From: Escherichia coli
Lineage (GTDB): Bacteria; Pseudomonadota; Gammaproteobacteria; Enterobacterales; Enterobacteriaceae
Direction: 5' to 3' (one strand)
Length of the DNA stretch: 64,000 bases
Assembly: GCF_009931435.1 (NCBI RefSeq)
Contig: NZ_CP043414.1
Shown here: piece after piece, positions 7,090-61,361 of the stretch
Numbering within the stretch: the stretch's first letter is position 1
How the letters are laid out: each line of letters opens with the position of its first letter
Made by a program: the position numbers and the translations under genes
The notes under the pieces: model-generated
What the model saw: only the letters and a program-made list of their open reading frames with translations
Told to the model about the DNA's origin: nothing
The model's database searches: none

Positions 7090-7101
7090 CTGCGCCTCCT
7101 T

Positions 7102-33629: not shown

Positions 33630-34878
33630 TGTTAGCCTCCACATGCGTCATTGCAGCTGTCGTTTTGCGATTCAAAATCGGGTTAAGGATCAGATAACTC
33701 AGCGCGCCACCTAATACCGCGTTGACCGGAACAATGCCCGGTAACCAGTGGCCTGCGGCAATCCCCAGCGTGACCGCCAGAATCGCCACCCAATTGACAC
33801 TCATCATACGCGTGGTCGCAAAGTGCTCATAGCGGCGACGGTTCATCAGAAAGTCGGCGATGATCACGCCACCCACCGGAGGAATAGCAGCCGAAAGGAA
33901 AGTCAGCCAGCCGACAAAATTGTTATACAGCCATAGTGCGCAGACTGTGCCGATAATACCGTTGATTACCGAAAGGGTTTTGCTCGACATACCGGTAATG
34001 TTGGCGAAACCTAAACCTGACGCATACAGTGCGTTATCATTGGTGGTCCAGATATTCAGCCCCAGCACCACAATCGCGGGCAGCAGCAAGCCCTGAGCAA
34101 TCATCACATCAGAGATATCCGCCATCCCCAGTGCCGCAGCGCCTGCCGCACCGAAAATAAACATCAACGAGTTGCCGAGGAAAAAGGCCACCATCGCCAC
34201 CAGCACCGCCAGTTTGGCATTGCGACCAAAGCGGACAAAGTCAGCGGTGAGCGTACCCGCACTGATAAATGACCCCACAACCAGCGCCAGCGCGACATTG
34301 AAATCTAACGGTTGTGCGGGAACGACCGCTTTTAATGCGTTCAGGCCGCCCATGTCGTTAACGGCCAGCCATACGGAATAACCGCCAAGGCAGGCAATCG
34401 CCGGAACCGCAATCACCGAAAGTACCGTCAGCGCCGAAATGCCAAAGAAGACGGTGACGGTCATCAGTAAACCGGAAACGGCAATCAGCAAATTAATATC
34501 CAGCCCGGTTGCCTTGCCCACCGGAATAGCAAACATCGCCACGCCAACACCGAACCAGCCGACCTGAGTGCCGCCCAGCAGCAGTGAAGGCAGCCATGAG
34601 CCTTTAACACCAAACGAGAAGCGAGCAAGAAGATGGGTGGTCAGGCCGGTTTTTGCGCCAATGTAACCAAGAAATGAAGTGTAAATACCGAGGAGAAGAT
34701 TACCGATGAGGACTGCGAGGAAGAAATCATGATAGCTAAGACCGGTTCCGAGAGTGCCGCCGGTCCACATACTGGCGGAAAAGAAGGTTAATCCCAGCAT
34801 GACGAACGTCAATGCCAATACCCCTTTCCGCGCCGACTGCGGGACTGGCCCCTGGCTAAAGTTGTTATCTTGCGACAC
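33619..34878 (-). CDS. codB: Cytosine permease (NCS1 family)
   Basis: 419 aa starting [33 protein letters not shown]. Confidence 0.97.
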
Positions 34879-46864: not shown

Positions 46865-47821
46865 TTAAACCACCCGATCCAGCCCCAACATGCCGCGAGC
46901 CTGAATGAAACAGAGCAGCAACGTTCCCCATAAGGCCATCGTCAGGTAGGGGCTTATCCCGAGAATATTGAAGCCGCTTTCAATAATTTGCAGAAGAAAC
47001 AGCGCCAGCACCATACCAATTATCCGCCCGCTGCCGCCGTCCGGATTAACCCCGCCGAGTACTGCCGCGAGGATTGACACCAGCAAGTACGATTCGCCAT
47101 AAGAGGCCTTAGCCGAGTTGAGTTTCGACATCATCAAAAATGCCGCTACCGCACAAAGCAAGGCGGAAATGACATACACCCATATCAGCACCCGACGCGT
47201 GTTAATACCGGAGTAAAGTGTTGCTCGTTCGTTAGAACCAATCAGATAAATGGATTTACCGAGCGGCGTTTTCTCCAGCAATATCCACAGCCCCAGCGCC
47301 ACTGCGGTAAACAACCACATCGGTAGCGGAATACCGAACCACTGTGCATGATTCAACCACAGCACCCATGAGGGATAATTGGCAATGGCGCTACCGCCTG
47401 TCACCAGAATATTTACCCCTTTGAGCAACGTCATCATCCCAAGCGTTGCAAGAATTGGCGACACTCGAATACCGGCAATCAATACGCCATTACATAAACC
47501 AATTATCACCGCCGCACCAGCGCCCGCCAGCAGCGTAGCGACAACCGTAGTAATACCCGGCGGATACTGAGTCGCCACCCACGCCATCACCAGTGAACAG
47601 GCGTTAGCGGTAGCAATAATTGACAAGTTAATGCCGCCACAAAGCATGGTCACCGCCATAGCCAACGCCAGAATGCCCAGCACGGGCATTTGCGAAGCGA
47701 CAGACTGGAAGTTACTTATCGACCAGAAAATCTCCGGCATAGTAATGCTGAACGCGGCAACAGTTAGCACCAGCAGGCCGATCAAATAAAACTCAACGTT
47801 ATTACGCCACGATTTTTTCAT
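46865..47821 (-). CDS. Sugar-type (CUT2) ABC transporter permease 2
   Basis: Multi-pass membrane protein of the ribose/branched-chain permease family. The ATG at 47821 forms an ATGA overlap with the upstream permease stop. The ORF-track start at 47851 is an extension. Confidence 0.88.
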   Translation of the reverse strand: MKKSWRNNVEFYLIGLLVLTVAAFSITMPEIFWSISNFQSVASQMPVLGILALAMAVTMLCGGINLSIIATANACSLVMAWVATQYPPGITTVVATLLAGAGAAVIIGLCNGVLIAGIRVSPILATLGMMTLLKGVNILVTGGSAIANYPSWVLWLNHAQWFGIPLPMWLFTAVALGLWILLEKTPLGKSIYLIGSNERATLYSGINTRRVLIWVYVISALLCAVAAFLMMSKLNSAKASYGESYLLVSILAAVLGGVNPDGGSGRIIGMVLALFLLQIIESGFNILGISPYLTMALWGTLLLCFIQARGMLGLDRVV

Positions 47822-48789
47822 AGCAGACTCCGGTTCTGATGCTGACTCCACGCCGTGGCACTAATGCTGGCAACGATGATGATGCCTGTGATCAATGTTT
47901 GCCAGTAAGACGAGACTCCCAATAAATTTAGCCCGTTTTGCATCACTGCCAACAACACCACGCCGAGCAAAGTACCGGTTAACGTGCCGCGCCCGCCGAG
48001 CAAACTAGTGCCGCCAAGCACCACCGCAGCCAGTACTGTCAGCTCATAACCCAGAAGAGAATCGGGGGCGACAGTCATCACCGTCCACGACTGCACTACA
48101 CCCGCAGCACCAGACATCAATCCCATATAGCCGTAAACGAAAAGTTGCAGTTTCAGCACGCTAAAGCCGATGCGACTGGCTGATTCACGGTTCCCGCCAA
48201 GGGCATAAATTTTGCGCCCTACACTGGTGAAATTCATGATAAACGCTGTCAGCAGCACCACCGTAATCATGGCGATCAGCGGCAGACCAAGGCCATAGTC
48301 ATAGCCGTCAACATCGGTGTACTTGAACAACATTACCCCCTGCTCAAACCACGGCGGAAAGTCGTACAGCCACACACCTTTACTCAACCATAACAGCAGG
48401 CCATAGAAAATATTCAGCGTCGAAATGGTGATGATGATAGAAGGCACCCGTAGGCGATTAACCAGTAAGGCGTTTATTAAGCCAAGTAAAATGCCGATGC
48501 CGCCCGCCAGGGCAAACGCGACAGCAAAGTTGCCACCCATTTTTTGTAGCAACAGCACCATGCCGTATTGCGCAATGATGGTCATTGCTGGAAACGAAAT
48601 ATCAATTCCACCGGAAATTAACACCACAAACAAACCACAGGCGAGAATAGTCAACATGGCATAGTTATTGGCGAGATCGTACAAATTACCGAATGTCAGA
48701 AACTCGTCGCTGCGCCAGGCAAGGCCAACAAACAGCACTATAATCAGTAATGCCAGCCAGAATTCATGACGTTTTTTCAGTTCAGCCAT
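47818..48789 (-). CDS. Sugar-type (CUT2) ABC transporter permease 1
   Basis: 323-aa multi-pass membrane protein. Its start overlaps the ATPase stop by 8 bp. Confidence 0.88.
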   Translation of the reverse strand: MAELKKRHEFWLALLIIVLFVGLAWRSDEFLTFGNLYDLANNYAMLTILACGLFVVLISGGIDISFPAMTIIAQYGMVLLLQKMGGNFAVAFALAGGIGILLGLINALLVNRLRVPSIIITISTLNIFYGLLLWLSKGVWLYDFPPWFEQGVMLFKYTDVDGYDYGLGLPLIAMITVVLLTAFIMNFTSVGRKIYALGGNRESASRIGFSVLKLQLFVYGYMGLMSGAAGVVQSWTVMTVAPDSLLGYELTVLAAVVLGGTSLLGGRGTLTGTLLGVVLLAVMQNGLNLLGVSSYWQTLITGIIIVASISATAWSQHQNRSLL

Positions 48790-50266
48790 TTACCACCTCC
48801 GCAATCCTGGCCTGAGAACTGCTGTCAGGCAGGAAGCTATGGGTGATCTGACCTTTTTGCATTACCAAAATCCGGTGGCTTTGATACCACGCTTCTTCAA
48901 TTTCATCGCAGATCATCAATACCGCAATGCCATGAGCCGCCAGATCGCTGATAATGCCGTATATTCCTGCTTTGTTGGCGATATCAACACCGACAGTCGG
49001 GCTATCGAGAATCAACAGTCGTGGCCCAATCGCCAGCCATTTGGCGATCGATACTCGCTGCGCGTTACCCCCGGAAAGCGTATTCACCGGGAGATGTGGG
49101 TCAGAGACTTTGATGGTCAATGCCTTAATTAGCCTGTCCACCAGGTCACGCACTTTAGCTTCACTCAGAAAGCCGAAGCGATCTTTTACCTTGTGAAAAA
49201 CAGTGCTAATGATGTTGTCTTCAATAGATTGCGCCATCACCAAACCGCGCGACATGCGATCTTCCGAAACATAACCAATACCGTGGCGGATGGCGTCCTG
49301 GTTACTATGCAGTGTAACCGGCTGACCGTTGATGAGGATCTCACCAGCATCCGGTCGGGTCATACCAAACAGACTCAGACATAATTCCGTGCGCCCCGCA
49401 CCAAGCAGGCCAACAATCGACACCACTTCGCCCGCTTCCACCCGCAAGTTAATATTTTGATATTCCCCATGACGACTTAAATTACGCACCTCCAGCACTG
49501 GGGTGCTGGATTTTCCCTGCCACAACTCTCGCACCTGATATTCAAACTCCTGGCCGGTCATCAGGAAACCGAGTTGTTTTGTGGTCATCTCTGCAGCCGG
49601 AAAGGTCCCGACCAGCTCACCATCTTTCAACACTGAAATACGGTCGGAAACTTCCATCACCTCTTCCAGACGATGACTGACGAAGACCACGCAGATCCCG
49701 CGTTCCCGCAATTGATGCACCACCTGTAATAACCCTTGCACTTCCTGATGGGTCAGCGAAGCGGTTGGTTCATCCATCACGATCAACCGTGCGTCCTGCG
49801 CCAGTGCACGGCAAATTGCCACCAGCTGACAGCGGGCAATTGAAAGCTCAGAAACGAGCGTATCCAGTGGCAATGTGACGTTAATACTGGTCATTGCCGC
49901 CTGCGCCACCTCACGCAGACGACGTCGGTTAACAAACAGTCCGTGGTGATAGTGATTCACGGCGATATTCTCCCAGACACTCAGGTTAGGAAATAAAGAG
50001 AGGTCCTGATAAATCACCTGAATCCCCTGCGCCACCGAAGCGGCGGGTGTCAGCTTTGACCAGTTTTTCCCACCAAGCGTAATTTCCGCCCCCTCATCCG
50101 GGCGATAAACACCGGACATAATTTTAATCAACGTCGATTTACCACAGCCGTTTTGCCCGGCAAGGCAGTGCACCTCACCCGACATAAAGTCGAGAGAAAC
50201 ATCGCGCAGCGCTCGCGTGGCATGAAACGTTTTGTTGATATGACGAAGGGAAAGGAAGGTTTCCAT
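48782..50266 (-). CDS. Sugar ABC transporter ATP-binding protein (two fused ABC domains)
   Basis: Walker A GQNGCGKST and a second GLLGAGRTE; LSGGNAQRV signature. The ATG at 50266 (METFLSLRHINKTF) is preceded by agggga. The ORF-track start at 50281 is a TTG. Confidence 0.9.
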   Translation of the reverse strand: METFLSLRHINKTFHATRALRDVSLDFMSGEVHCLAGQNGCGKSTLIKIMSGVYRPDEGAEITLGGKNWSKLTPAASVAQGIQVIYQDLSLFPNLSVWENIAVNHYHHGLFVNRRRLREVAQAAMTSINVTLPLDTLVSELSIARCQLVAICRALAQDARLIVMDEPTASLTHQEVQGLLQVVHQLRERGICVVFVSHRLEEVMEVSDRISVLKDGELVGTFPAAEMTTKQLGFLMTGQEFEYQVRELWQGKSSTPVLEVRNLSRHGEYQNINLRVEAGEVVSIVGLLGAGRTELCLSLFGMTRPDAGEILINGQPVTLHSNQDAIRHGIGYVSEDRMSRGLVMAQSIEDNIISTVFHKVKDRFGFLSEAKVRDLVDRLIKALTIKVSDPHLPVNTLSGGNAQRVSIAKWLAIGPRLLILDSPTVGVDIANKAGIYGIISDLAAHGIAVLMICDEIEEAWYQSHRILVMQKGQITHSFLPDSSSQARIAEVVNG

Positions 50267-50314
50267 AGCATCCCCTGGCAATAAGAATCGGGGCTTTCGC
50301 CCCGAAGAAATGGA

Positions 50315-51301
50315 TTAATAAAGTGAGTCAATATTGTCTTTGTTGACCAGTAATACCTTATGGAAACGGATAATTCGCTTATCCATATCTACGTCGGCCT
50401 TACCGAGATTCTCCATTTCTAATCCAGGTTTGATCTCTTCACCCTTCAGCAACGTGCTGGCGACGGCCGCGAGTGCGTAACCTGCAGAGGCCGGATCGTA
50501 AGTAATCCCTTCGGTGATATCACCACTTTTAATCAGTGATGCCGCCTGTGAAGGGATCATCATGCCATAGACTGCGACTTTATTTTTCGCCCGTTTCTCT
50601 TTCACTGCACGTCCCGCGCCAATCGGACCGTTTGAACCAAAGGAGACAACCGCTTTCAAGTCAGGATAGGTTTTCATGAGGTCCAGTGTGGTACGACGTG
50701 AGTCATCCACACTCTCGGCAACCGGCATGCGGCGGGTAACTTCATGCATATCCGGGTAATGCTCTTTCTGGTATTTCACCAGCAAGTCAGCCCATAAGTT
50801 ATGCTGCGGCACGGTCAAACTACCCACGTAAATCACATAGCCGCCCTTGCCACCCATGCGTTTCGCCATATGTTCAACATATTCAGCGGCAAATTTTTCG
50901 TTATCAATGATTTCGATATCCCAGTTAGCACTTGGCTGACCGGGGGATTCGTTGGTCAGAACCACAATTCCGGCATCTCGCGCTTTTTTGAATACCGGTT
51001 CCAGCACGTTGGCATCGTTTGGCACGATAGTAATTGCGTTAACCTTACGAGCGATTAAATCCTCAATAATTTTAACCTGTTGAGGAGCATCAGTACTTGA
51101 AGGTCCCACCTGTGACGCATTAACACCAAAGGCTTTACCTGCCTCGACCACACCTTCGCCCATGCGATTAAACCACGGCATACCATCGACTTTAGAGATA
51201 TTCACCACGACTTTTTCCGCTGCCTGGAGCGGCGAGGAAATTAGCGCAGCGCCTAATAACAGCGAAGACACCATATTGATAACAAAACGTTTATTCATCA
51301 T
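50315..51301 (-). CDS. Periplasmic sugar-binding protein (LsrB/RhaS-like subfamily)
   Basis: Signal peptide MMNKRFVINMVSSLLLGAALISSPLQA. It resembles LsrB throughout and at the C-terminus (VLLVNKDNIDSLY versus the recalled LsrB VIFNKDNIDKYDF). Confidence 0.85.
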   Translation of the reverse strand: MMNKRFVINMVSSLLLGAALISSPLQAAEKVVVNISKVDGMPWFNRMGEGVVEAGKAFGVNASQVGPSSTDAPQQVKIIEDLIARKVNAITIVPNDANVLEPVFKKARDAGIVVLTNESPGQPSANWDIEIIDNEKFAAEYVEHMAKRMGGKGGYVIYVGSLTVPQHNLWADLLVKYQKEHYPDMHEVTRRMPVAESVDDSRRTTLDLMKTYPDLKAVVSFGSNGPIGAGRAVKEKRAKNKVAVYGMMIPSQAASLIKSGDITEGITYDPASAGYALAAVASTLLKGEEIKPGLEMENLGKADVDMDKRIIRFHKVLLVNKDNIDSLY

Positions 51302-51461
51302 TTCAGCCTCATTGCAGGGTAGTCAGGAAGTGTTCGCCCAAATTAGCGCGCTGGAGAGAATAAGAATTTTCGAATATTTTTATGCAGAATAAACAGCCCT
51401 ATTTCAGGCAGCTATTAAAAATTTGGTTATAAATATGGACAAAATGGGCAGCAACAATAAG

Positions 51462-51477
51462 TGTGACATTCATCACG
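51462..51477. promoter_or_regulatory. Near-consensus CRP site upstream of the ABC transporter operon
   Basis: tgtga-cattca-tcacg, compared with the consensus TGTGA-N6-TCACA. It lies about 165 bp upstream of the binding-protein start. Confidence 0.6.
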
Positions 51478-51551
51478 TAAAAAATAGTAAAACAAACACA
51501 ATTAACGATATTTTATGTTTGTGAGTTTATTTCATGCGGATAGAGAGTTAT

Positions 51552-51962
51552 CTACACAACTTCAATGAGGGCATATTCTTCAAAAATAACGTCCATTTCG
51601 GGTGAATAGCTTCCCTCTGCCTGGAAAAAACGACGGTGTTCATTGCGCCAATATTCAAGACTAAGATCACCTTCACCTTCCTTGCGGGCAATCTCTTCGG
51701 TGACATCAGAAAAGCGCAGTAAATGCAGGCCAATCACTCTGATAACACATACAGGCTCACCACGGCTATTTTCTACAATCTTATACTCGCCAATCATCGG
51801 AAATGCGTTGTCTTCAATACATCCTGCCAGCGAACCACAGGAAGCAGTTTTAACACCAGTTGCAATCAACGTTGCGAGGTAATCGGCCAACGCTGCTGAA
51901 TCGCCAAAACTACAAAAGGAAGCATGGGGATATTTTTGTGAGATTTTTTCTTTTATGGTCAT
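51552..51962 (-). CDS. ASCH-domain protein (COG4405/YhfF-like), function unknown
   Basis: Characteristic family pattern FGDS...LA..I..G.KTA...GEPVCVI....L..F..VTEE.A.KEGEGD.SLEYWR.EH..FF. The start is ambiguous (ATG at 51962, or the ORF-track start at 51992). Confidence 0.8.
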   Translation of the reverse strand: MTIKEKISQKYPHASFCSFGDSAALADYLATLIATGVKTASCGSLAGCIEDNAFPMIGEYKIVENSRGEPVCVIRVIGLHLLRFSDVTEEIARKEGEGDLSLEYWRNEHRRFFQAEGSYSPEMDVIFEEYALIEVV

Positions 51963-52260
51963 GGCAATATTTTCGCGATAACAGAACAACAAATTACATC
52001 TTAATTACTGTCGATAACTATCAGCAAGAGGATCATTGGTTTTTCTATGTTTAATCTTTTTTATCCGAAGCAGGTCACATTTATGGCTTGATAAATACCT
52101 TTGTTAAAACTCACTTTTGTGTATTTCTCTCAAATAATCCCCTGGAAATTATGCCGGGAGATTATAAAGTTCAGGATCATTCATTAACAAACCATTCCCG
52201 CCCCACTCCCTGGGGCTTAAATCTCTTACTATTCACCGTTGCAGGCGTTTCAAATTCGTA

Positions 52261-53643
52261 TCAACCTGCCACACTCCCCCACACCAGTTGCCCTTTATGG
52301 AACGTCGCCGTTCTCGGCGAGATACGCGCCACCGCCTCGGCAGAACAGGAGGCGTCCACCAGCACAAAGCTGGCGTCATCCTGCGCTTTTGGCCACACAC
52401 GCTCGCCTTTTTCATTTAGCGGCAACACATCGCCAGTGGCTAAAAACAGCGAGCGGGATAAATTCTGTTCGTTAGGACGAATATAGAGCTGCGCATACAG
52501 ATTGGCTTTTTCCAGCATGTCGCCCAGGCCGTAAGGCGACCAGTGGTCGATAACGCTGTCGGTGCCGGTCATCACTTTTACACCTTTGTCATGTAGCTGT
52601 TTGAGCGGCATATGCAACGTGCCAATCGGCACCGTCGAGGCGATAGAAATTTGCTGCGCCGCCATCCGGTGCGCCAACTCATCGACCTGTTGCTCGTTGA
52701 GCGTTGCCAGCGCAAAGGCGTGACTGATGGTCAGCTTGCCCTTCAGCTGCGGCGTTTTCTCTACCGTTTCAACCATATAATTGATGGCTGCCACGCCCGC
52801 CGGAGTGGTTTCGTGCAGATGAATATCGACGCCTTTGTCGTAGTCCAGCGCAATCTGGAACATGGTGTCGAGGGATTTTTCCATCGCGCCATCAACACTG
52901 GTCGGGTCCAGCCCGCCGACGTAATGCGCGCCTGCCTGCATTGCTTCACGCATCAAGGGTTCCGATTTCGACAGCAGCAAACCGTGCTGCGGGAAGGCGA
53001 CGATTTCACACTCGAAGCCCGCCTGACGTCGCGCCAGCACCGCCTGCAAATTTTGCAGATTTTTCAGGCCGGAAACCGGTTCGATATTGCAGTGGCTGCG
53101 GGCAATGGTGGTGCCTTTCGACTGCAATAAATCGATCAGTTTTTCTGCCCGCTCCTGAGTGTACGGTTGTAACTCCGGCAGCATTTTCTGCTCGAGTTTG
53201 ATCATGTCCTGGATGGTGGTGCCTGCCGGGCGATTGAGCGAGCGCCACGGTCCGCCGTAAAAGGTTTTGTCGAGATGAATATGCATGTCGCGAGTAGTGG
53301 GCAGCATCAGCTTACCGCCAGCGTCATATTGCGGCAGCGTGGCGTCCGGATGCTGCTTGTTCTCATGTAGCACAACAATTTTACCGTCCTGAATCTCCAC
53401 GGTCTGGCGCGCCGTGCGGGTCTGCACCGCCACACCGTTTTCGTAGTCAAAACCGGTTTCCAGCAGCACGTTATCAAGATAGTAATGCGGGTCAGTGATT
53501 TTCATGGTGTTATTCGCGTCGCAGTGGGTTGTGCCAGAGACCTCCGCATGGGCGAATGGCACAGAGGTACCAAACAGCGCGGCGGCGGTGACCATCTTAC
53601 CGCTCTGGCTCAGAAATTCACGGCGGCTATTGTTTTTTTTCAT
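52261..53643 (-). CDS. yahJ: Tat-signal amidohydrolase (cytosine deaminase-like)
   Basis: 460 aa with the twin-arginine motif SRREFLSQSGKMVTAAALFGTSVPFAHA and the metal-binding motif DMHIHLD. It is recognisable as YahJ. Confidence 0.93.
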   Translation of the reverse strand: MKKNNSRREFLSQSGKMVTAAALFGTSVPFAHAEVSGTTHCDANNTMKITDPHYYLDNVLLETGFDYENGVAVQTRTARQTVEIQDGKIVVLHENKQHPDATLPQYDAGGKLMLPTTRDMHIHLDKTFYGGPWRSLNRPAGTTIQDMIKLEQKMLPELQPYTQERAEKLIDLLQSKGTTIARSHCNIEPVSGLKNLQNLQAVLARRQAGFECEIVAFPQHGLLLSKSEPLMREAMQAGAHYVGGLDPTSVDGAMEKSLDTMFQIALDYDKGVDIHLHETTPAGVAAINYMVETVEKTPQLKGKLTISHAFALATLNEQQVDELAHRMAAQQISIASTVPIGTLHMPLKQLHDKGVKVMTGTDSVIDHWSPYGLGDMLEKANLYAQLYIRPNEQNLSRSLFLATGDVLPLNEKGERVWPKAQDDASFVLVDASCSAEAVARISPRTATFHKGQLVWGSVAG

Positions 53644-53652
53644 CTTACGTCC

Positions 53653-54603
53653 TTACGTTTTAATAATATGGGTGCCCGTTTCGCCACGCAGCGCCGCGGG
53701 CAGGCATTCCGGCGTGGTGATAATCACTTCTTTACCGCCCTGTTCCAGGAACGTCAGGCTGGCGATGATTTTTGGCAACATGCTGCCTGGCGGGAAATGC
53801 CCTTCCTGCATATAGCGGGTCATGGTGGCAATATCCACCCGATCCAGCGCCTGCTGCTGCGGTTTGCCAAAATGAATACACACTTTTTCGACGCCAGTGG
53901 TGATCACCAGAATGTCGGCGTGAATTTCACGGGCCAATAGCGCGGTAGAGAGATCTTTGTCGATAACCGCGTCCACGCTTTGGTAATCCCCCGCTTCACT
54001 GCACACCACCGGAATTCCACCGCCGCCCGCGCCAATTACCACAAAGCCTTGTTGGATCAGCGCCTTAATGGCAGGTGCTTCGACAATACGTTTCGGTTCC
54101 GGCGAGGCGACCACGCGGCGATAGCCGCGTCCGGCATCTTCAACAAAACGCCAGTCAGGGTTTGCCTTTTGTAATTCGTTACGCTGGCTTTCACTGAAGA
54201 ATGCGCCAATGGGCTTGGTGGGGTGAGCAAATCCCGGATCGTTTTTATCCACTTCCACCTGAGTCACCACGGTGACGGCTTTTTTCTCGCCGTGGCGCGC
54301 CAGCCGATTGTTCAGCGCCTGTTGGATCAAGTAGCCAATGCCGCCTTGCGTATCCGCCACACAGTTCGCCAGCGGCGTTAAGGGCAGCCCTTCGCGCTCG
54401 TGGGCAATCTCCGCACGGCGTAGATCCAGCCCAACCTGCGGCCCGTTGCCGTGGGTCAGCACAATGTCGTAATCGGAAGCCAGCATTTCCAGCACCGTAT
54501 CGGCGACGGCCTTCACCGCCTCCGCCTGATGCTCAATCGACTGGCTGGCGTTATCTTTGATAATGCTGTTGCCACCAATGGCAACGACCACAAGTTCTTT
54601 CAT
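53653..54603 (-). CDS. yahI: Carbamate kinase-like protein
   Basis: 316-aa protein of the amino-acid kinase fold, starting MKELVVVAIGGNSI. It is recognisable as YahI. Confidence 0.94.
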   Translation of the reverse strand: MKELVVVAIGGNSIIKDNASQSIEHQAEAVKAVADTVLEMLASDYDIVLTHGNGPQVGLDLRRAEIAHEREGLPLTPLANCVADTQGGIGYLIQQALNNRLARHGEKKAVTVVTQVEVDKNDPGFAHPTKPIGAFFSESQRNELQKANPDWRFVEDAGRGYRRVVASPEPKRIVEAPAIKALIQQGFVVIGAGGGGIPVVCSEAGDYQSVDAVIDKDLSTALLAREIHADILVITTGVEKVCIHFGKPQQQALDRVDIATMTRYMQEGHFPPGSMLPKIIASLTFLEQGGKEVIITTPECLPAALRGETGTHIIKT

Positions 54604-54653
54604 GTTGTTATGTCCGCTACAGAGGGTGATGGGGTTATGACCAACGCCAGACA

Positions 54654-55112
54654 GCCTGATGCGCTACGCTTATCAGGCCTACAGATTCTTGTGCCATTCG
54701 TAGGCCGGATAAGGCGTCCACGCCGCATCCGGCAATGGTGACAAATGCCTGATGCGCTACGCTTATCAGGCCTACAGATTCTCGCGCCACTCGTAGGCCG
54801 GATAAGGCGTTCACGCCACAACCGGCAATGGTGACAAATGCCTGATGCGCTACGCTTATCAGGCCTACAGATTCTTGTGCCATTCGTAGGCCGGATAAGG
54901 CGTCCACGCCGCATCCGGCAATCGTGACAAATGCCTGATGCGCTACGCTTATCAGGCCTACAGATTCTTGCGCCACTCGTAGGCCGGATAAGGCGTTCAC
55001 GCCGCATCCGGCAATGGTGACAAATGCCTGATGCGCTACGCTTATCAGGCCTACAGATTCTCGCGCCACTCGTAGGCCGGATAAGGCGTTCACGCCACAT
55101 CCGGCATGAACA
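54654..55112. repeat. BIME array, about five tandem units with an exact 93-bp period
   Basis: gcctgatgcgctacgcttatcaggcctacag recurs at 54654, 54747, 54840, 54933 and 55026. Each is followed by tcgtaggccggataaggcg...cgccgcatccggca. Confidence 0.95.
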
Positions 55113-55118
55113 TGTCAG

Positions 55119-56537
55119 TCAGACGCCGTAACGTTCGCACCAGCCAAGAATGGCTTTCTCGAAGCAGGCGAATGGTGGATGCACAATGCCCGCGCCAATC
55201 ATGCCGACGCCTGCATCTTTATGGGCAATGGCGGTGTTGATCACCGGCAGAATGCCACTGCTACCCACGCGGGTGATGTCGATTGCCGTCGGCACACCCA
55301 TAAAACCGAGCAGCGGAATGGTCACGTTGGGGTTTTCGCCGAGAGTGATTTCGCACATCTGACGGGAGAAATCGATAGCCTCTTCCACCGTACCGCCCAC
55401 CAGCGCGACGATTGCAGGCGCGGTCGCCATAGCAAATCCACCAATGCCGTAGGTTTCGGTGATGGCGCTGTCGCCAATATCCAGCCCCGAATCTTCCGGC
55501 TTATAACCGGCAAACATCGGGCCGATGACCTGTTGCGCCGGGCCGGTAAACCACTGCCCCGGCAGGCCGCTGACTCGCAGGCCGAACTCGACACCATTAC
55601 GCGCCATCGTGGTCACCACGGTGCTGTATTCGATGCCGTGCGCCGCATCCATCGCCGCTTTACACATCGCCATCCACGTCGGGCCGGAGAAGTAGTCGCT
55701 GCTGGCGACAAACTCAAACACTTCGCGCTGTTGCTCGACGGAATAACCCGCCTGAATAATCCCCGGCGTCAGCGCCTGAATCAGCAGCGTCGTCCCGGCG
55801 TTATTGCGGTTATGGCATTCATCGCCCATATGCAGCGCCTGCGCCAGCATCAAGCGCAGATCAATCTCACCGAGAATTTTCATCGCGTCACGCAGCATTG
55901 GCCCCTGCACATCGCGCATCCAGTTGAGGCGGTCAATCACGCTCTGATCGTTGGCACCCATACGCAAAATCTTCGCCATCTGCTCGCTCATATTGGTGTA
56001 AGCGATGTTGCCGAAGGTTTTGTTTTTCACGATGTGCATAAACATCGAGGCAGAGGTAACACCCGCCATCGAACCCACGCAGTCATGCTCGTGGCACGGC
56101 GAGAAAGTGATCTCCCCGGAAGCCGCCAGTTCAGCCGCCTCGTCAAGATCTTTCGCCAGCCCTTCGAACACCAGCGCCCCGGTGACCGCGCCTTTCATCG
56201 CGCCGCACATTTTTTCCCAGGTCACTGGCGGCCCGGCGTGAAGAATGGTTTTCACCGTCATGCCTGGCACCACGTTAATCGCCTGATCAAAACCAATCAG
56301 CACCGGATGCGACTGGATAATGCGTTCCAGCGCCTGCTGGTTAGCGGCGGCGATTTTGTCTGCCAGCGGCGAATCGGCAATGTTGTCCAGTGCCTGCACC
56401 ACCTGCATATTGCCCTGCCCCGGCGGCGTCCAGTCGAGTTGGGTTACTTCTACATGCTGCTTTTTCAGATCATCGCTAAACATAGCGATGCCGACATTAA
56501 TAACGTTCAACGGTTGGCTAAACAGTGACTGGCTCAT
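55119..56537 (-). CDS. yahG: DUF1116 protein (YlbE paralogue)
   Basis: The 472-aa form starts MSQSLFSQPLNVINVGIAMF. Its start overlaps the yahF stop (TGATG). Confidence 0.93.
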   Translation of the reverse strand: MSQSLFSQPLNVINVGIAMFSDDLKKQHVEVTQLDWTPPGQGNMQVVQALDNIADSPLADKIAAANQQALERIIQSHPVLIGFDQAINVVPGMTVKTILHAGPPVTWEKMCGAMKGAVTGALVFEGLAKDLDEAAELAASGEITFSPCHEHDCVGSMAGVTSASMFMHIVKNKTFGNIAYTNMSEQMAKILRMGANDQSVIDRLNWMRDVQGPMLRDAMKILGEIDLRLMLAQALHMGDECHNRNNAGTTLLIQALTPGIIQAGYSVEQQREVFEFVASSDYFSGPTWMAMCKAAMDAAHGIEYSTVVTTMARNGVEFGLRVSGLPGQWFTGPAQQVIGPMFAGYKPEDSGLDIGDSAITETYGIGGFAMATAPAIVALVGGTVEEAIDFSRQMCEITLGENPNVTIPLLGFMGVPTAIDITRVGSSGILPVINTAIAHKDAGVGMIGAGIVHPPFACFEKAILGWCERYGV

Positions 56538-58084
56538 CAGGCTTCCTCCCCTTTGCAAATAAATTCACGCGCCAGCAATCCGGTATTGGTGCTGCTGCTG
56601 GCCAGAATCACCCCGGCATCAAGCAGCATCTGGCTTTGTTGTGCTAACGATGGCGTATCGAGATCGGTACCCAGCACATAGGCGAGAATGATCAACTCGC
56701 GGCCTTCGGCGGCAGCGATCGCTTTCGCTTCTTTGATCGCCTCGATGGTGGAACCGACCGGATCTTCATGCGATCCAAATCCGAGCACAAAATCCATCAC
56801 GATCACCGCCACTTCTGGATCGCGCGCTTCTTCGATCAACCGGCTGATGCGGTTGGTGGGGTCAATCATTGGATGCGGCTTGCCGTTGGTGAAGTCGTCA
56901 TCGCCAAAGTCGAGGAAGGTGTGTTTGATGCTGCGGTTGATATCTTGCAGGCGGAATTCCGGATCGGGCTGAATGTTGCTGTAGACATCGCCATGTTTTT
57001 CCATCACCGCGAACATGGTTTCGTCACACAGCGTACCGCCGCAGAACAGTCCTCGAATGTATTTCTGCTGCGGTTGCAGGCGAGCGCGCACGTCAGCAAT
57101 CAACGGCTGGTTCAGCGTATGCAGCTCGAGATGTTCCTGTTTCACGCCGGAGAGCATCACCGCTTTCAATGCCGCCTCTTTACTGCCGCGGGCAAACTGT
57201 AGCCCCTGCTCATCCACTGGTGTTTCGCCACGGCCGAGGAAGCAGACCACCACCGGCTTGCGGCAGGCGCGTGCGCGTTCCAGCACTTTGCGGGCCACCG
57301 CAGGCGCAGGCGGTTTGGAGATAAGTACAATGATTTCAGTTTGCGGATCGTTTTCCAGCATCCCGATGGCGTCGAGCATCATCAGGCCGCCGATTTTCTC
57401 GCTCAGGTCGCGCCCGCCGGTGCCAATCAGTTGCGAAATGCCGCCACCAAATTCATGAATGCGGACGCTCAGCTCCTGGCTACCGGTGCCGGATGCGCCA
57501 ACAATACCGATGTTGCCGCGACGCACAGCGTTACCAAAGCAGAGCGCCGCGCCGTTGATAATCGCCGTGCCGCAGTCTGGCCCCATCATCAGCAGCCCTT
57601 TTTCGTGGGCCAGTTGCTTGAGCGCCAGTTCATCTTCAACTGAGACATTATCGGAAAACAGCATCACGTTAAGATCGTTTTGCAGCGCCTGACGTGCTTC
57701 GCGAGCGGCAAACAGACCGTTGACCGAAATCACTGCCAGGTTATTTTCCGGGATATGCTTTTTGGCGCTGGCAATCGTGGCATAACGCGCCTCGTGCGAG
57801 CCGCTTTGCGCTTTGCTGTTGAACAGTTCTTCAATCTCCACCAGCAACTGCTCGTTGTCTGCGCCCGCTTTGCCGTTGATGACAATCATCAGGTCGCCGT
57901 TTTTCGCCTGCTCCAGCTCCGGCGTCAGCAGCCCTAAATTCTTCAGCACGCCTTTGTTCATTTCTGTCGCCATCGCCACAAATGCCTGCTCGACGCCGTC
58001 GAGTTTATTTGCACGCGTGGAGATAGACATCAGCGAGACAGAATCAAAATAGGTATTCGGTTTAATGACTATTTTAACTGACAT
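56537..58084 (-). CDS. yahF: FdrA-family acyl-CoA synthetase-like protein (succinyl-CoA ligase alpha-like domains)
   Basis: 515 aa, recognisable as YahF, with a CoA-ligase-like GxGG region (VGASGTGSQE). Confidence 0.93.
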   Translation of the reverse strand: MSVKIVIKPNTYFDSVSLMSISTRANKLDGVEQAFVAMATEMNKGVLKNLGLLTPELEQAKNGDLMIVINGKAGADNEQLLVEIEELFNSKAQSGSHEARYATIASAKKHIPENNLAVISVNGLFAAREARQALQNDLNVMLFSDNVSVEDELALKQLAHEKGLLMMGPDCGTAIINGAALCFGNAVRRGNIGIVGASGTGSQELSVRIHEFGGGISQLIGTGGRDLSEKIGGLMMLDAIGMLENDPQTEIIVLISKPPAPAVARKVLERARACRKPVVVCFLGRGETPVDEQGLQFARGSKEAALKAVMLSGVKQEHLELHTLNQPLIADVRARLQPQQKYIRGLFCGGTLCDETMFAVMEKHGDVYSNIQPDPEFRLQDINRSIKHTFLDFGDDDFTNGKPHPMIDPTNRISRLIEEARDPEVAVIVMDFVLGFGSHEDPVGSTIEAIKEAKAIAAAEGRELIILAYVLGTDLDTPSLAQQSQMLLDAGVILASSSTNTGLLAREFICKGEEA

Positions 58085-58937
58085 AATTCCCTCCGTAGGT
58101 TTGGCTCAGCGCACAACCATCGGCCATGCCATACAGCATGTCGCAGCCGGAACTGGAGCCAATATGTTTAATTTTTTCTATTGCCTGAGTTGCGTTCCCA
58201 GGTATGTCATAAATAATGTTATGAATAAAACGATGAATATTTTCCCGGCAGCGTTGTTGTAATGCGGCTTCCAGCGTTATGGCACTTAATAACGTGGTAT
58301 TATTTCTGCCGTGTTGCAGACCGAGATAAAATTCCTCTTTGTATTTTTCCGCCGGATGCCCAGGAACAAATAAAATAAGCGCCAGACCTGTTAAATAATC
58401 GTCGGCTGATGGCGTAAGGCCAATCCCTAACCCCATCATACTGACGACCGCTGAGGCGATATTTTGTTTATCGTTTACGGCCTGAATAACTGCCCGTCGT
58501 TTAATATGTAATTCTTTATTTAACGCCTGATAAAACGGATTATCGCCGCGATAATTAAACAGGGTTTCATTTTCCCCCAGGTGCTGATGAATAATGTCGT
58601 GCCACTGTTGCCAGGCGATAAGGTGAAAATTTTCAGCGGTCATTTGCAAAGCTGGGGACAGCCAACGCTGGCAATGACTCATCTCTATATGAAGATGTTG
58701 ACCAACCGTAATACCTTGATCATCAAACTGAACCTTATCACCATGACGGAACAGACCATCAAAGTGAGTGAGTGCCAACCGACAACTGTTTGGCGCATTG
58801 TCGTACTCTTCACAAAGCAGCGTTAGCAACTGCTGGCGAACCGGGAGTGCGATATTTACCGCTCTGGCAAAGACCTGTTCAACCTGTCCTTGCCCCCGCT
58901 GTACCAGAAAATCTGCATCCGCAGTTAGCGCCCACAC
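58074..58937 (-). CDS. yahE: DUF2877 protein (YlbF paralogue)
   Basis: 287-aa ORF that overlaps the yahF start by 11 bp. Position and size match yahE. Confidence 0.85.
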   Translation of the reverse strand: MWALTADADFLVQRGQGQVEQVFARAVNIALPVRQQLLTLLCEEYDNAPNSCRLALTHFDGLFRHGDKVQFDDQGITVGQHLHIEMSHCQRWLSPALQMTAENFHLIAWQQWHDIIHQHLGENETLFNYRGDNPFYQALNKELHIKRRAVIQAVNDKQNIASAVVSMMGLGIGLTPSADDYLTGLALILFVPGHPAEKYKEEFYLGLQHGRNNTTLLSAITLEAALQQRCRENIHRFIHNIIYDIPGNATQAIEKIKHIGSSSGCDMLYGMADGCALSQTYGGNYVS

Positions 58938-58976
58938 ACACCGTCTTTCTGGTGTGTTGATAGCAAACCTCCCGGT

Positions 58977-59582
58977 TTATGCGCCTGCGGCAATCAGCAA
59001 CTGAGCAATCTCTTCAAAGCCCCGTTCCCGTGCCAGTTCCAGCGGCGTTTTACCATATTTATCCGTCATGTGCGGGCTGGCACCGTGTTCCAGCAATAAC
59101 TGGACAATCGCCTGCTGTTTTATCCCGCCATCATTAAGCACAATTGCTTCCAGTAGCGGCGTCCAGCCAACATGGTTGGTCTGGTTAACGTTAATCTCCG
59201 TATGCGCCAAAAGCTCTTTTACAATACTTAAATGGCCTTTTTCACAGGCAGGCGTCAGGCCGACACCGCCGAAACGGGTTACACAATTAAGGTCTGGTTT
59301 AGCCGGTAAAATAATCCGTAACAGGGTTAAATCGCCGGTCAGGCAGCTCATTAAAAAAGGATTTAAACAGGTCTGGTCTTGTTTATTAATATCCGCACCG
59401 GCATCAATTAACGCCTGAACGCAAGCATATTGCTGATATAAACTTGCCAGCGTAATTGCCGTTTTCCCCTGGCGATCGCAGGTATTAATATCGACACCCA
59501 GAGCAAGGCAGGCTTTTACTTTATCGATATCACCCTGTTGCGCAGCCAATAAATAGTCGGCAGGTAGATTTTTTATACTCAT
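58977..59582 (-). CDS. yahD: Ankyrin-repeat protein
   Basis: The 201-aa form starts MSIKNLPADYLLAAQQGDIDKVK. It carries repeated ankyrin motifs (G.TPL..A...G......LL..GA). Confidence 0.92.
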   Translation of the reverse strand: MSIKNLPADYLLAAQQGDIDKVKACLALGVDINTCDRQGKTAITLASLYQQYACVQALIDAGADINKQDQTCLNPFLMSCLTGDLTLLRIILPAKPDLNCVTRFGGVGLTPACEKGHLSIVKELLAHTEINVNQTNHVGWTPLLEAIVLNDGGIKQQAIVQLLLEHGASPHMTDKYGKTPLELARERGFEEIAQLLIAAGA

Positions 59583-59685
59583 TAACATTCCCCTGGTTTT
59601 TGTGGCTGTTTTCGATGAATTGAGAATAGCAACGATAATCTGATAAAAGAACCCGCTTAAATTTAATTCGCCGTATTTCGCCTTT

Positions 59686-59706
59686 TTGTTGAATGATGTT
59701 CAACAA
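59686..59706. promoter_or_regulatory. Perfect 8-5-8 inverted repeat in the yahD-yahC divergent region (candidate operator)
   Basis: ttgttgaa-tgatg-ttcaacaa. Confidence 0.35.
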
Positions 59707-59839
59707 TCTTTTCGCAGTGTGCGGTAGTGCAATATTTGTTTCTTTGACCCGATACCCTTCCACTCAATCAGGTTTTATTTCTCTATAGTCTGCACATGTA
59801 AGAGTAGCTTTCGTCCATGTCTAACCAGAGGGGAACAAG

Positions 59840-60337
59840 ATGAACGGACTCACGGCAACGGGTGTCACCGTCGGTATTTGTGCAGGGCTTTGGCAGTTAG
59901 TGTCTTCACATGTTGGGCTTTCTCAGGGATGGGAATTATTAGGAACCATTGGCTTTGTCGCCTTTTGCAGTTTTTATGCCGCAGGCGGCGGTAAATCGGG
60001 GTTTATCAGAAGCCTGGCGGTTAATTATTCCGGGATGGTGTGGGCGTTTTTCGCCGCGCTGGCTGCCGGTTGGCTGGCCTCGGTGAGTGGGATTTCCGGC
60101 TTCTGGGCGAGCGTGATTATGACTGTACCCTTCTCGGCGGTGGTGGTCTGGCAAGGACGTTTCGGTTTACTGTCTTTTATTCCCGGAGGCTTTCTCGGCA
60201 TGACGCTATTTTTTGCCAGCGGGATGAACTGGACGGTGACATTACTGGGTTTTCTGGCGGGTAACTGCGTGGGGATAATTTCAGAATATGGCGGACAAAA
60301 ATTAAGCGAAGCGACGACTAAACGCGACGGGTATTAA
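59840..60337 (+). CDS. yahC: DUF1097 inner-membrane protein
   Basis: 165-aa hydrophobic ORF in the expected position. Confidence 0.88.
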   Translation: MNGLTATGVTVGICAGLWQLVSSHVGLSQGWELLGTIGFVAFCSFYAAGGGKSGFIRSLAVNYSGMVWAFFAALAAGWLASVSGISGFWASVIMTVPFSAVVVWQGRFGLLSFIPGGFLGMTLFFASGMNWTVTLLGFLAGNCVGIISEYGGQKLSEATTKRDGY

Positions 60338-60428: not shown

Positions 60429-61361
60429 ATGAACTCAATTTTTACCGAAGAGAATCTGTTGGCATTTACTACCGCTGCGCGTTTTGGCAGCTTCAGTAAA
60501 GCCGCAGAAGAGTTGGGTTTAACCACTTCCGCCATTAGCTACACCATCAAGCGAATGGAAACAGGGCTGGATGTGGTGCTGTTCACTCGCAGTACCCGCA
60601 GCATTGAGTTAACGGAGTCCGGGCGTTATTTTTTCCGCAAAGCTACCGACCTGCTGAATGATTTTCACGCCATCAAACGCAGCATCGATACTATTTCGCA
60701 GGGCATAGAAGCGCGTGTGCGTATTTGTATTAATCAGCTGCTTTATACGCCCAAACACACCGCACGCTTATTACAGGTACTGAAAAAGCAGTTTCCAACC
60801 TGCCAGATTACCGTCACCACCGAAGTGTATAATGGCGTCTGGGATGCGATTATTAATAATCAGGCGAATATCGCTATCGGCGCACCCGACACGCTGCTGG
60901 ACGGCGGCGGCATTGATTACACGGAGATTGGCGCGATTCGCTGGGCTTTTGCTATCGCCCCGGATCACCCGTTAGCCTTTGTGCCGGAACCCATCGCCGA
61001 AAGCCAACTGCGTCTCTATCCTAATATCATGGTGGAAGACACCGCGCATACGATTAATAAAAAAGTGGGCTGGTTGCTGCATGGGCAGGAGTCGATTCTG
61101 GTGCCAGATTTCAACACCAAATGTCAGTGCCAGATTTTAGGCGAAGGAATTGGTTTTTTGCCGGATTACATGGTCCGCGAGGCGATGGCGCAAGCGCTAC
61201 TGGTTACCCGACAAATTCATAACCCGCGCCAGGATTCGCGCATGTTACTGGCAACTCAACACTCTGCCACCGGTCAAGTGACGCAGTGGATTAAAAAGCA
61301 GTTTGCGCCAAAGGGTATATTAACAGGGATCTATCAGGATTTACTGCATCGGGAGAATTGA
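60429..61361 (+). CDS. yahB: LysR-family transcriptional regulator
   Basis: 310 aa with the N-terminal HTH FTTAARFGSFSKAAEELGLTTSAISYTIKRME. Confidence 0.92.
   Translation: MNSIFTEENLLAFTTAARFGSFSKAAEELGLTTSAISYTIKRMETGLDVVLFTRSTRSIELTESGRYFFRKATDLLNDFHAIKRSIDTISQGIEARVRICINQLLYTPKHTARLLQVLKKQFPTCQITVTTEVYNGVWDAIINNQANIAIGAPDTLLDGGGIDYTEIGAIRWAFAIAPDHPLAFVPEPIAESQLRLYPNIMVEDTAHTINKKVGWLLHGQESILVPDFNTKCQCQILGEGIGFLPDYMVREAMAQALLVTRQIHNPRQDSRMLLATQHSATGQVTQWIKKQFAPKGILTGIYQDLLHREN

Follow-up and report, generated by a model that had tools for sequence, protein, structure and literature searches.

We analyzed the yah cluster in a 64,000-nucleotide stretch of Escherichia coli DNA (contig NZ_CP043414.1 of RefSeq assembly GCF_009931435.1; referred to here as the window). 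The cluster comprises yahD, yahE, yahF, yahG, yahI, and yahJ, and we hold with moderate confidence that it is the Escherichia version of an ancient, energy-conserving cluster for the catabolism of a nitrogen compound, built around a deaminase, a carbamoyl-phosphate-forming enzyme, and a carbamate kinase. Because the cluster is conserved from E. coli to Firmicutes, an unrecognized nitrogen-compound pathway is probable. The genes, their family names, and the twin-arginine translocation (Tat) signal of YahJ are already recorded in databases and papers. The present analysis adds the occurrence of the cluster across phyla, the interchangeability of its deaminases, the exchange between yahC and the gene of another membrane protein (X), the dispensability of YahE, the fusion and tail evidence joining YahF to YahG, and a conserved operator.

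No function has yet been assigned to these six adjacent genes of E. coli K-12, which most E. coli genomes carry. A previous reading made from the sequence alone (the sequence-only reading) regarded the cluster as uncharacterized, and the literature agrees; our searches found no biochemical assignment or functional study of yahB through yahJ, of the families DUF1116 and DUF2877, or of an ankyrin protein paired with carbamate kinase. Mentions of yahB, yahC, and yahD occur in lists or technical notes, and a 2024 survey of the y-ome counts yahC, yahE, yahG, yahH, yahI, and yahJ among the uncharacterized genes (PMC11551758). The AllFGH class of transcarbamylases obtained its first and sole characterized member in 2024, and the yah copy is its first divergent relative. 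The yah substrate would set the specificity range of this class and could add an ATP-yielding nitrogen pathway to gut and environmental bacteria, extending from Firmicutes to Proteobacteria. The analysis also provides experimental handles, namely, the conserved YahB operator, a shortlist of substrate classes, and testable roles for YahD, YahC, and X.

Relatives of the Yah enzymes

The sequence-only reading had proposed, as a matter for pairwise alignment, that YahF, YahG, YahE, and YahI mirror the fdrA-ylbE-ylbF-ybcF set of the allantoin region (now allF, allG, allH, and allK). When compared with their K-12 counterparts, YahF was 39% identical to FdrA/AllF (E = 2e-102), YahG was 45% identical to YlbE/AllG (E = 1e-119), YahE was 25% identical to YlbF/AllH (E = 6e-10), and YahI was 38% identical to YbcF/AllK (E = 2e-57). 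The homology of the Yah proteins to the allantoin set far exceeds chance. Pfam and NCBIfam concurred on the families encoded by the cluster (i.e., AllH, AllG, the FdrA subfamily, carbamate kinase, ankyrin, and amidohydrolase PRK06846). YahF passed the NCBIfam model NF004760 of the FdrA subfamily (490.6 bits; cutoff, 433) and matched the FdrA structure, PDB 3dmy, with an E value of 1.6e-82. YahI passed the carbamate kinase model NF009007 (PRK12352; 644.9 bits; cutoff, 266) and scored narrowly below the cutoff of the arcC model TIGR00746 (346.8 bits; cutoff, 358.25). YahG was approximately 72% identical to the uncharacterized protein of PDB 3clq. By these comparisons, YahF and YahG, with YahE as a loose third component, are placed as a sister paralog of the oxamic transcarbamylase AllFGH.

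The chemistry of the All set, which the sequence-only reading named correctly but as a proposal, was shown by biochemical assays in 2022 to 2024 (PMC11326118, PMC9843812). Purified AllF-AllG-AllH forms oxalurate from oxamate and carbamoyl phosphate (i.e., it is an oxamic transcarbamylase), with a KM for oxamate of 36.9 mM, and allF, allG, and allH are all required for oxamate formation (PMC11326118). YbcF/AllK is a catabolic carbamate kinase (PMC9843812). The yah genes go unmentioned in both papers. The K-12 deletion mutants of allF or allG yielded zero oxamate although the yah genes were present (PMC11326118); thus, the yah copy is no substitute for All under the conditions tested.

The two sets share four families encoded by adjacent, translationally coupled genes, as well as the chemistry expected of them (from a ureide through carbamoyl phosphate to ATP), and the LysR-family regulator YahB resembles AllS the most. 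They differ in gene order (F-G-H-K versus E-F-G...I in yah) and in the position of a linker tail of approximately 45 amino acids (aa), which is found on FdrA in the former and on YahG in the latter. The yah cluster adds the ankyrin protein YahD, the Tat amidohydrolase YahJ, and a membrane protein (YahC or X), whereas allB, allC, allD, and allE are absent among its neighbors in the window. Identities between All and Yah proteins range from 25 to 45%, in contrast to 55 to 78% among Yah-type proteins across phyla.

From the codon overlaps between adjacent genes, the sequence-only reading had deduced a stoichiometric complex. The overlaps are real, but a complex is better grounded in gene fusions, a swapped tail, and copurification. 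YahG has an N-terminal extension of approximately 57 aa, and FdrA has a C-terminal extension; YahG residues 8 to 52 match positions 509 to 553 of the FdrA model, and the two tails align pairwise at an E value of 3e-8. A segment of approximately 45 aa is found at the C-terminal end of FdrA and at the N-terminal end of YahG. A search of 1.8 billion representative proteins recovered many proteins of approximately 1000 aa with an AllG-like C-terminal half, and Pfam assigned CoA_binding, Ligase_CoA, and AllG domains to single chains of these fusions. The natural fusions, whose split falls at one point in the All lineage and at another in the Yah lineage, strongly support F and G forming a single enzyme. 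AllG also copurifies with His-tagged AllF (PMC11326118). Two other fusions were of unusual composition: P0412 (551 aa) joins a GntR DNA-binding domain to AllG, and P0387 (1095 aa) is an AllF-AllG fusion with a C-terminal ChrR-type cupin domain.

YahE/AllH appears to be a loose and partly dispensable member of this enzyme, and a dispensable one in the clusters of the Enterobacter type and of Aeromonas. AllH-His by itself did not retain AllF and AllG, some activity remained in an allH deletion mutant, and 7% of the activity was recovered with allFG alone (PMC11326118). Judged by the ratio of nonsynonymous to synonymous substitution rates (dN/dS), yahE evolves the fastest (0.2 to 0.28, versus 0.02 to 0.14 for most other genes), and it was missing from 26 Enterobacter-type and Aeromonas loci among the 85 loci compared below. 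Sequence searches found no solved relative of YahE, and the model that AlphaFold2 built from the YahE sequence alone was too poor to use (mean predicted local distance difference test [pLDDT] score, 39.7).

The twin-arginine signal reported for YahJ by the sequence-only reading was evident. The N terminus (MKKNNSRREFLSQSGKMVTAAALFGTSVPFAHA; MKKNNSRREFL...AHA) has the Tat pattern of an S/T-R-R-x-F-L motif, a hydrophobic stretch, and an AxA site (SRREFL...TAAALFG...AHA). Of the 115 listed YahJ relatives without fusion to an upstream carbamate kinase (at least 70% identity; Enterobacterales, Aeromonas, and Shewanella), 113 had the RR motif; of the two exceptions, one was N-terminally truncated and the other had RH for RR. 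The YahJ protein of Pasteurella (48% identity) also carries an RR signal, and the signal was absent from the homologs of Trichococcus (36%; same NCBIfam family) and Bosea (30%). Among the sequences compared, a Tat signal was seen only in gammaproteobacterial YahJ proteins. YahJ is listed as a predicted E. coli Tat substrate with the function "Unknown," and a yahJ deletion mutant of extraintestinal pathogenic E. coli had a competitive index of 0.70 in a mouse model (PMC7549933). This mild attenuation hints at in-host relevance of the cluster.

YahJ passed the NCBIfam amidohydrolase model PRK06846 (714.7 bits; cutoff, 447). Its nearest solved structures were of the AtzC (N-isopropylammelide isopropylaminohydrolase) type (6nbo, E = 4e-44; 2qt3, E = 2e-30), with cytosine deaminase at an E value of 3e-20. 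In an alignment with CodA encoded in the same window (32346 to 33644), YahJ matched the catalytic residues of CodA at HxH, Gln, His, Glu, His, and Asp; i.e., DMHIHLD, FPQ, HLHE, SH, and TDS of YahJ paired with EPHIHLD, FPQ, HCDE, SH, and HDD of CodA. YahJ thus keeps the full catalytic set of a mononuclear CodA/AtzC-type deaminase. It differs from CodA in having Ser at the position of the substrate-binding Asp314 and in carrying a Tat signal, with which the window CodA does not start in the alignment. Furthermore, YahJ scored 102.7, 81.7, and 69.9 bits against the NCBIfam models of cytosine deaminase, far under their cutoffs (438, 483, and 403, respectively), and it is therefore not a cytosine deaminase but an enzyme of like mechanism that acts as a deaminase or dealkylaminase. 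The codA and codB genes (cytosine deaminase and permease; 32346 to 34878) lie approximately 19 kb from yahJ, and the genome thus encodes a cytoplasmic CodA plus a CodA-like YahJ bearing a Tat signal. In some assemblies (P0001, P0002, P0004, and P0008; metagenome and NCBI), single open reading frames (ORFs) of 677 to 780 aa fuse YahI and YahJ; these may reflect read-through over the 9-nucleotide (nt) spacer (i.e., sequencing or annotation) or may be real fusions.

Recurrence of the cluster and its regulation

We compared 85 loci around YahJ relatives. The gene set B-D-E-F-G-X-I-J was found at 27 loci (Citrobacter, Serratia, Buttiauxella, and others), and B-D-F-G-X-I-J, which lacks yahE, was found at 26 (Enterobacter, Lelliottia, Leclercia, and Aeromonas). 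The Escherichia set, B-C-D-E-F-G-I-J, was shared by 15 loci that also included those of Kluyvera, Klebsiella, Raoultella, Pseudocitrobacter, and Citrobacter amalonaticus. Six loci had the minimal form B-D-J (Cedecea, Pragia, and two Enterobacter isolates), nine had yahJ alone (Xenorhabdus, Shewanella, and Dryocola), and two were cut by a contig end. X is a 515-aa polytopic membrane protein encoded between yahG and yahI in most genera and not in Escherichia. The yahC gene was present in exactly the 15 yahFG loci without X and absent from the 53 with X; in other words, 68 of the 68 yahFG loci had X or yahC and none had both. This pattern is suggestive of YahC as a possible stand-in for the missing X, of which no remnant was found within the window.

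X had no match by sequence in Pfam, NCBIfam, or the PDB. Its structural model (pLDDT, 86.5) has a UraA/SLC26-type fold of 7+7 transmembrane segments, with Foldseek matches to SVCT1, UraA, AZG, and BicA, and the source databases label it a xanthine permease. A 515-aa protein of Aeromonas, considered as a divergent YahE, turned out to be X, and the 244-aa neighbor of Shewanella yahJ, considered as an ankyrin protein, is not one.

More distant clusters, reached via X and via YahG homologs similar to 3clq, contained a recurrent set of an ankyrin protein, AllH-, AllF-, and AllG-like proteins, a carbamate kinase (CK), a deaminase, a membrane transporter, and a LysR or PucR regulator. By this recurrence in gamma-, beta-, and alphaproteobacteria and in Firmicutes, the yah cluster is an ancient one. 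Among Firmicutes, the genes read PucR, Ank, AllH, AllF, AllG, NCS1, CK, a deaminase of the cytidine deaminase (CDA) fold, and X in Brevibacillus; PucR, AllH, AllF, AllG, a 381-aa protein, CK, NCS1, and a CDA-fold deaminase in Paenibacillus; PucR, two YahJ-family amidohydrolases, Ank(-TPR), AllH, AllF, and AllG in Trichococcus; and PucR, X, Ank-TPR, AllF, and AllG in Jeotgalibaca. Those of Bosea read PucR, X, a long Ank, AllH, AllF, AllG, CK, and an amidohydrolase; those of Pasteurella read X and then Ank, AllH, AllF, AllG, CK, LysR, and a Tat amidohydrolase; and those of Janthinobacterium read Ank, AllH, AllF, AllG, X, CK, and LysR. The locus of the 3clq protein contained PucR, AllH, AllF, and AllG. 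Identities between Brevibacillus and the window were 78% for YahG, 67% for YahF, 58% for YahI, 55% for YahD, and 26% for YahE; across Firmicutes, YahG identity was 72 to 78%.

The ankyrin gene, which the sequence-only reading had singled out as unusual, is a genuine member of the cluster, given that it adjoins the HFG module, yahJ, or both in the compared loci. Full-length orthologs of YahD were found in Brevibacillus (55% identity), Pasteurella (63%), and Janthinobacterium (67%). Because the ankyrin gene recurs across phyla, YahD is a core component rather than an E. coli oddity. The B-D-J loci had raised the idea of YahD solely as a YahJ-specific chaperone or inhibitor; we rejected this idea because YahD accompanies HFG without a YahJ-type enzyme in Janthinobacterium and Brevibacillus.

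The deaminase slot is filled either by a PRK06846 amidohydrolase or by a CDA-fold deaminase of approximately 150 aa. The use of two unrelated folds for this slot argues that the pathway cannot do without deamination of a nucleobase-like amine. The NCS1 carrier of Brevibacillus is allantoin permease-like, with a score (443.8 bits) below the cutoff of 620. Downstream of AllG, the Firmicute clusters also encode a conserved protein of approximately 381 to 394 aa with a hydrophobic N terminus (L092, 11198 to 12379; L093, 11485 to 12669; L094, 11528 to 12673), which matched neither Pfam nor NCBIfam and lacks a counterpart in the E. coli yah cluster; its Trichococcus copy and the copy at the 3clq source locus are 68% identical. 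Just downstream of the Brevibacillus cluster (L088, 13025 to 13729) are genes of the Asp/Glu/hydantoin racemase family and for an ABM monooxygenase, neighbors that may hint at hydantoin-like substrates.

The putative regulator of the cluster is YahB, whose gene adjoins yahD or yahJ in 74 of the 85 compared loci. Its best NCBIfam models were AllS (E = 6e-80; 268.6 bits, which does not reach the cutoff of 372) and PunR (E = 9e-71). A palindrome, ATTGTTGAA-N5-TTCAACAA, lies 5' of yahD at 59686 to 59707 and contains T-N11-A; it was unique in the window at up to 2 mismatches. It is followed by the box GCGAATTAAATTTAAGCGGG at 59652 to 59671, given as GAATnAnnTTTAAGCGG among the blocks common to 19 loci, and by the -10-like element GTTGCTATTCTCA at 59621 to 59633. 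All three elements are kept in 19 loci from Escherichia to Aeromonas, minimal yahB-yahD-yahJ loci included, and the common form of the palindrome in these loci is ATTnTTnAA-N5-TTCAAnAAT. Neither a consensus sigma-70 promoter nor a consensus -35 element was found 5' of yahD, which fits an activator-dependent promoter. The layout is as expected of a promoter activated by a LysR-type protein, and we infer YahB to be the candidate activator.

A candidate pathway and its alternatives

Under the reading that we favor, YahJ of gammaproteobacteria would be exported in folded form to the periplasm and would act there on a nucleobase- or hydantoin-like heterocycle, which would lose a small amine or an exocyclic amino or imino group. 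The product would be imported by a membrane protein (X in most genera and possibly YahC in Escherichia). Either as imported or once its ring has been opened, it would be a ureido or N-acylurea compound. Yah(E)FG would use phosphate to cleave this ureide or N-acylurea and release carbamoyl phosphate, which YahI would convert, with ADP, to ATP, CO2, and NH3. YahB would sense the substrate or an intermediate and activate the yahD promoter, and YahD would serve as a protein-protein adaptor, with the FG enzyme and the YahJ precursor as candidate partners.

The substrate is probably not oxalurate derived from allantoin. Pointers to its class may be found in the allantoin permease-like NCS1 carrier, in the predicted UraA/SLC26-type fold of X, and in the PucR or AllS/PunR-like regulators. 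More tentatively, Yah-type clusters may represent an undescribed, cross-phylum, ATP-yielding catabolism of N-heterocycles so far unrecognized as nutrients, in which an AllFG-class complex would have a dedicated ankyrin subunit and the Tat system would have relocated deamination to the periplasm in gammaproteobacteria. Examples of candidate heterocycles are purine oxidation products of the imino-hydantoin/parabanate type, creatinine-like 2-amino-imidazolones, amino-pyrimidines, and triazines.

A similar logic is used by the oxalurate route and by the arginine and agmatine deiminase routes. In the deiminase routes, hydrolytic removal of NH3 leaves a ureido group that is converted to carbamoyl phosphate and then, by carbamate kinase, to ATP. 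They share the three-step logic proposed for yah, but their transcarbamylases have the aspartate/ornithine transcarbamylase (ATCase/OTCase) fold, unrelated to the AllFGH class, and their first enzyme modifies a guanidino group, whereas Yah-type clusters have a metallo-amidohydrolase or a CDA-fold deaminase. The predicted periplasmic first step in gammaproteobacteria is another difference. In the anaerobic purine/urate island of E. coli, the orphan transcarbamylase YgeW is encoded with the carbamate kinase YqeA (PMC4016543, PMC12623156). This pair resembles the yah cluster in tying a transcarbamylase and a carbamate kinase to the catabolism of N-heterocycles, but YgeW has the classical ATCase/OTCase fold, and it has no protein family in common with YahEFG.

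Several points weigh against the proposed pathway. All of the Yah reactions, the compartment, the transport, and the role of YahD were inferred from homology and gene context, and the periplasmic location of YahJ is a predicted one. The relatives of YahJ without a signal in Firmicutes and alphaproteobacteria suggest that separation of compartments is not essential to the chemistry, and the B-D-J loci (Cedecea and Pragia) and the loci with yahJ alone (Xenorhabdus and Shewanella) suggest that YahJ can work without FG. No ring-opening enzyme is encoded in the cluster, which leaves a gap between a deaminated heterocycle and an acyclic ureide. The exclusivity of X and YahC may amount to one event, not 68, because the 15 yahC loci may share a single rearrangement, and the modeled fold of X does not tell nucleobase (NCS2) carriers from anion (SLC26) carriers. 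Finally, the lack of oxamate in the all mutants could simply reflect unexpressed yah genes.

The last point bears on an alternative that we consider unlikely, although it is the main one, i.e., that YahEFG is a second true oxamic transcarbamylase, with different regulation and a different entry step, acting on oxalurate from a source other than allantoin (e.g., parabanic acid or imino analogs from oxidized purines, deaminated by YahJ). Our searches, which were not directed at All-type copies in Firmicutes, recovered the Yah type and not the All type from that phylum (YahG, 72 to 78%). The 3clq protein, an Enterococcus faecalis entry, comes from the PucR-AllH-AllF-AllG locus described above, and an allantoin permease-like NCS1 carrier is part of the Brevibacillus cluster. 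Classical work reported oxamic transcarbamylase activity from Streptococcus allantoicus and S. faecalis, and in a Streptococcus, parabanic acid induced this activity (references 21 to 23 of PMC11326118). However, the K-12 allF and allG mutants yield no oxamate from allantoin despite intact yahEFG, a result that might be due to a lack of expression, and the identity of YahG to AllG (45%) compared with that among Yah-type G proteins across phyla (>70%) suggests separate, constrained specificities.

It is improbable that the Escherichia cluster is a decaying remnant with an incomplete pathway, in which only single genes such as yahJ still matter. X is gone without a trace in the window, REP arrays (see below) of variable copy number occupy the yahG-yahI spacer, yahF of E. 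albertii NBRC 107761 has an in-frame TAG, approximately 450 of the 5426 complete E. coli genomes had no match at a coverage of at least 80%, and other genera have minimal yahB-yahD-yahJ loci, all of which are consistent with decay. These observations are countered by the six intact ORFs both here and in K-12, whose dN/dS is mostly 0.03 to 0.09, by the conserved promoter/operator of yahD, and by the retention of the form with yahC and without X in Kluyvera, Klebsiella, Raoultella, Pseudocitrobacter, and Citrobacter amalonaticus.

We regard an anabolic direction, with YahI making carbamoyl phosphate and YahEFG carbamoylating an acceptor (e.g., for modification or detoxification), as highly improbable. 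AllFGH was indeed assayed in the carbamoylating direction and is therefore reversible in vitro, and YahI bears the EcoCyc-style name "carbamate kinase-like." The accompanying genes are nevertheless catabolic in kind (deaminases, uptake carriers, and PucR or AllS-like regulators), the KM of AllFGH for oxamate is 36.9 mM, and to our knowledge all characterized carbamate kinases linked to transcarbamylases (arginine deiminase, agmatine deiminase, and allantoin) run toward ATP.

The least credible alternative makes YahF an acyl-CoA synthetase in a cluster that activates an acid with CoA and involves no carbamoyl transfer, as the RefSeq names ("acyl-CoA synthetase FdrA" and "putative acyl-CoA synthetase YahF") and the Pfam domains CoA_binding and Ligase_CoA would have it. 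However, the YahF match to succinyl-CoA synthetase alpha models ends at model position 232 of 291, short of the phosphohistidine loop, which in E. coli SucD contains His246. In addition, the surroundings of the cluster encode no ATP-grasp beta subunit, a carbamate kinase gene is present in nearly all FG-bearing loci, and the characterized relative is a transcarbamylase subunit. The last of these points is from the AllFGH study (PMC11326118).

Layout and evolution of the Escherichia locus

The ORFs agree with the sequence-only reading in showing six intact minus-strand genes in the order yahD-E-F-G, a repeat array, and yahI-J (Table 1). That reading placed the cluster at 52261 to 59588; yahD is indeed there, but the K-12 start is at 59582, two codons downstream of an in-frame ATG at 59588. 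These coordinates do not span the whole functional unit, which also takes in yahB, yahC, and the conserved promoter. Read directly, the overlaps are as previously described, 11 nt for yahE/yahF and 1 nt (TGATG, in ...GCC TGA TG AGC) for yahF/yahG, and the gap between yahI and yahJ is 9 nt. Promoter and terminator scans inside the cluster gave nothing above shuffled expectation.

Table 1. Features of the yah locus (positions are those of the window)
Feature	Position	Strand	Description
yahJ	52261-53643	minus	Predicted Tat-signal amidohydrolase, CodA/AtzC type; signal peptide approximately residues 1-33 (nt 53545-53643)
yahI	53653-54603	minus	Carbamate kinase family; NCBIfam PRK12352
REP/BIME-type array	54654-55118		Five tandem 93-bp units in the yahG-yahI spacer
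yahG	55119-56537	minus	AllG-like (DUF1116) subunit; Pfam AllG (PF06545), E = 4e-89
yahF	56537-58084	minus	AllF/FdrA-like subunit, succinyl-CoA-synthetase-alpha-like fold; NCBIfam FdrA subfamily
yahE	58074-58937	minus	AllH-like (DUF2877) subunit or accessory factor; Pfam AllH (PF11392), E = 1.6e-28
yahD	58977-59582	minus	201-aa cytoplasmic ankyrin-repeat protein; Pfam Ank_2/Ank_4
Promoter/operator region 5' of yahD	59621-59707	minus	Three conserved blocks
yahC	59840-60337	plus	Small membrane protein; Pfam DUF1097
yahB	60429-61361	plus	LysR-family regulator; Pfam HTH_1 and LysR_substrate

Of 5426 complete E. coli genomes, 4976 had a match that covered at least 80% of the cluster stretch. The best genome match was 97.2% identical (98.6% for the prp region), and this low value indicates that the window is from a divergent Escherichia lineage.

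The sequence-only reading had reported a 459-bp bacterial interspersed mosaic element (BIME) array between yahG and yahI. The array is there, although that length is approximate; we count five 93-bp units (approximately 465 bp) in a 515-bp spacer. The units are 92 to 98% identical to the reference copy and carry the elements GCCGGATG...CCGGCCTAC and GTAGGCCTGATAAGCG...CATCAGGC, which identify the array as one of the BIME/repetitive extragenic palindromic (REP) type, and the predicted fold of its transcript is far stronger than those of shuffled sequences (z = -6.96). The array is one unit shorter in K-12 (four units), is arranged differently in E. albertii, and is missing from Kluyvera; in K-12, the yahH site has been described as "filled with REP23 sites" (PMC11551758). 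The array occupies the spot held by X in 53 other loci. Direct replacement of X by the array was considered and rejected, given that Kluyvera, without X, has no repeat in the spacer. Because the Kluyvera spacer is repeat free and those of the other genera without X are too short for such an array, the loss of X must have preceded the array, which colonized the spacer at a later stage in Escherichia.

Relative to K-12, dN/dS was 0.03 to 0.09 for yahD, yahF, yahG, yahI, and yahJ and 0.28 for yahE, low values that indicate purifying selection. The ratio for yahC was 0.07 to 0.11. The in-frame TAG in E. albertii NBRC 107761 yahF (L009, approximately 5616 to 7160) means that the gene may be a pseudogene there. 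Synonymous divergence (dS) from E. albertii was 0.2 to 0.33 for yahD, yahE, yahG, yahI, and yahJ and 0.70 to 0.77 for yahB and yahC (not computable for yahF), and dS from K-12 was 0.066 for yahE and approximately 0.2 for its neighbors. These differences among genes suggest that recombination has made the locus a mosaic, one boundary of which lies close to the yahC/yahD promoter.

Neighbors of the cluster in the window were yahB, yahC, yahK, pdeL, and betT. Between yahJ and yahK (47000 to 51992), there is an ASCH-domain gene (51552 to 51962; minus strand) together with a four-gene ABC transporter of the sugar/AI-2-like type, both of which are absent in K-12 and present in strain 2020CK-00188.

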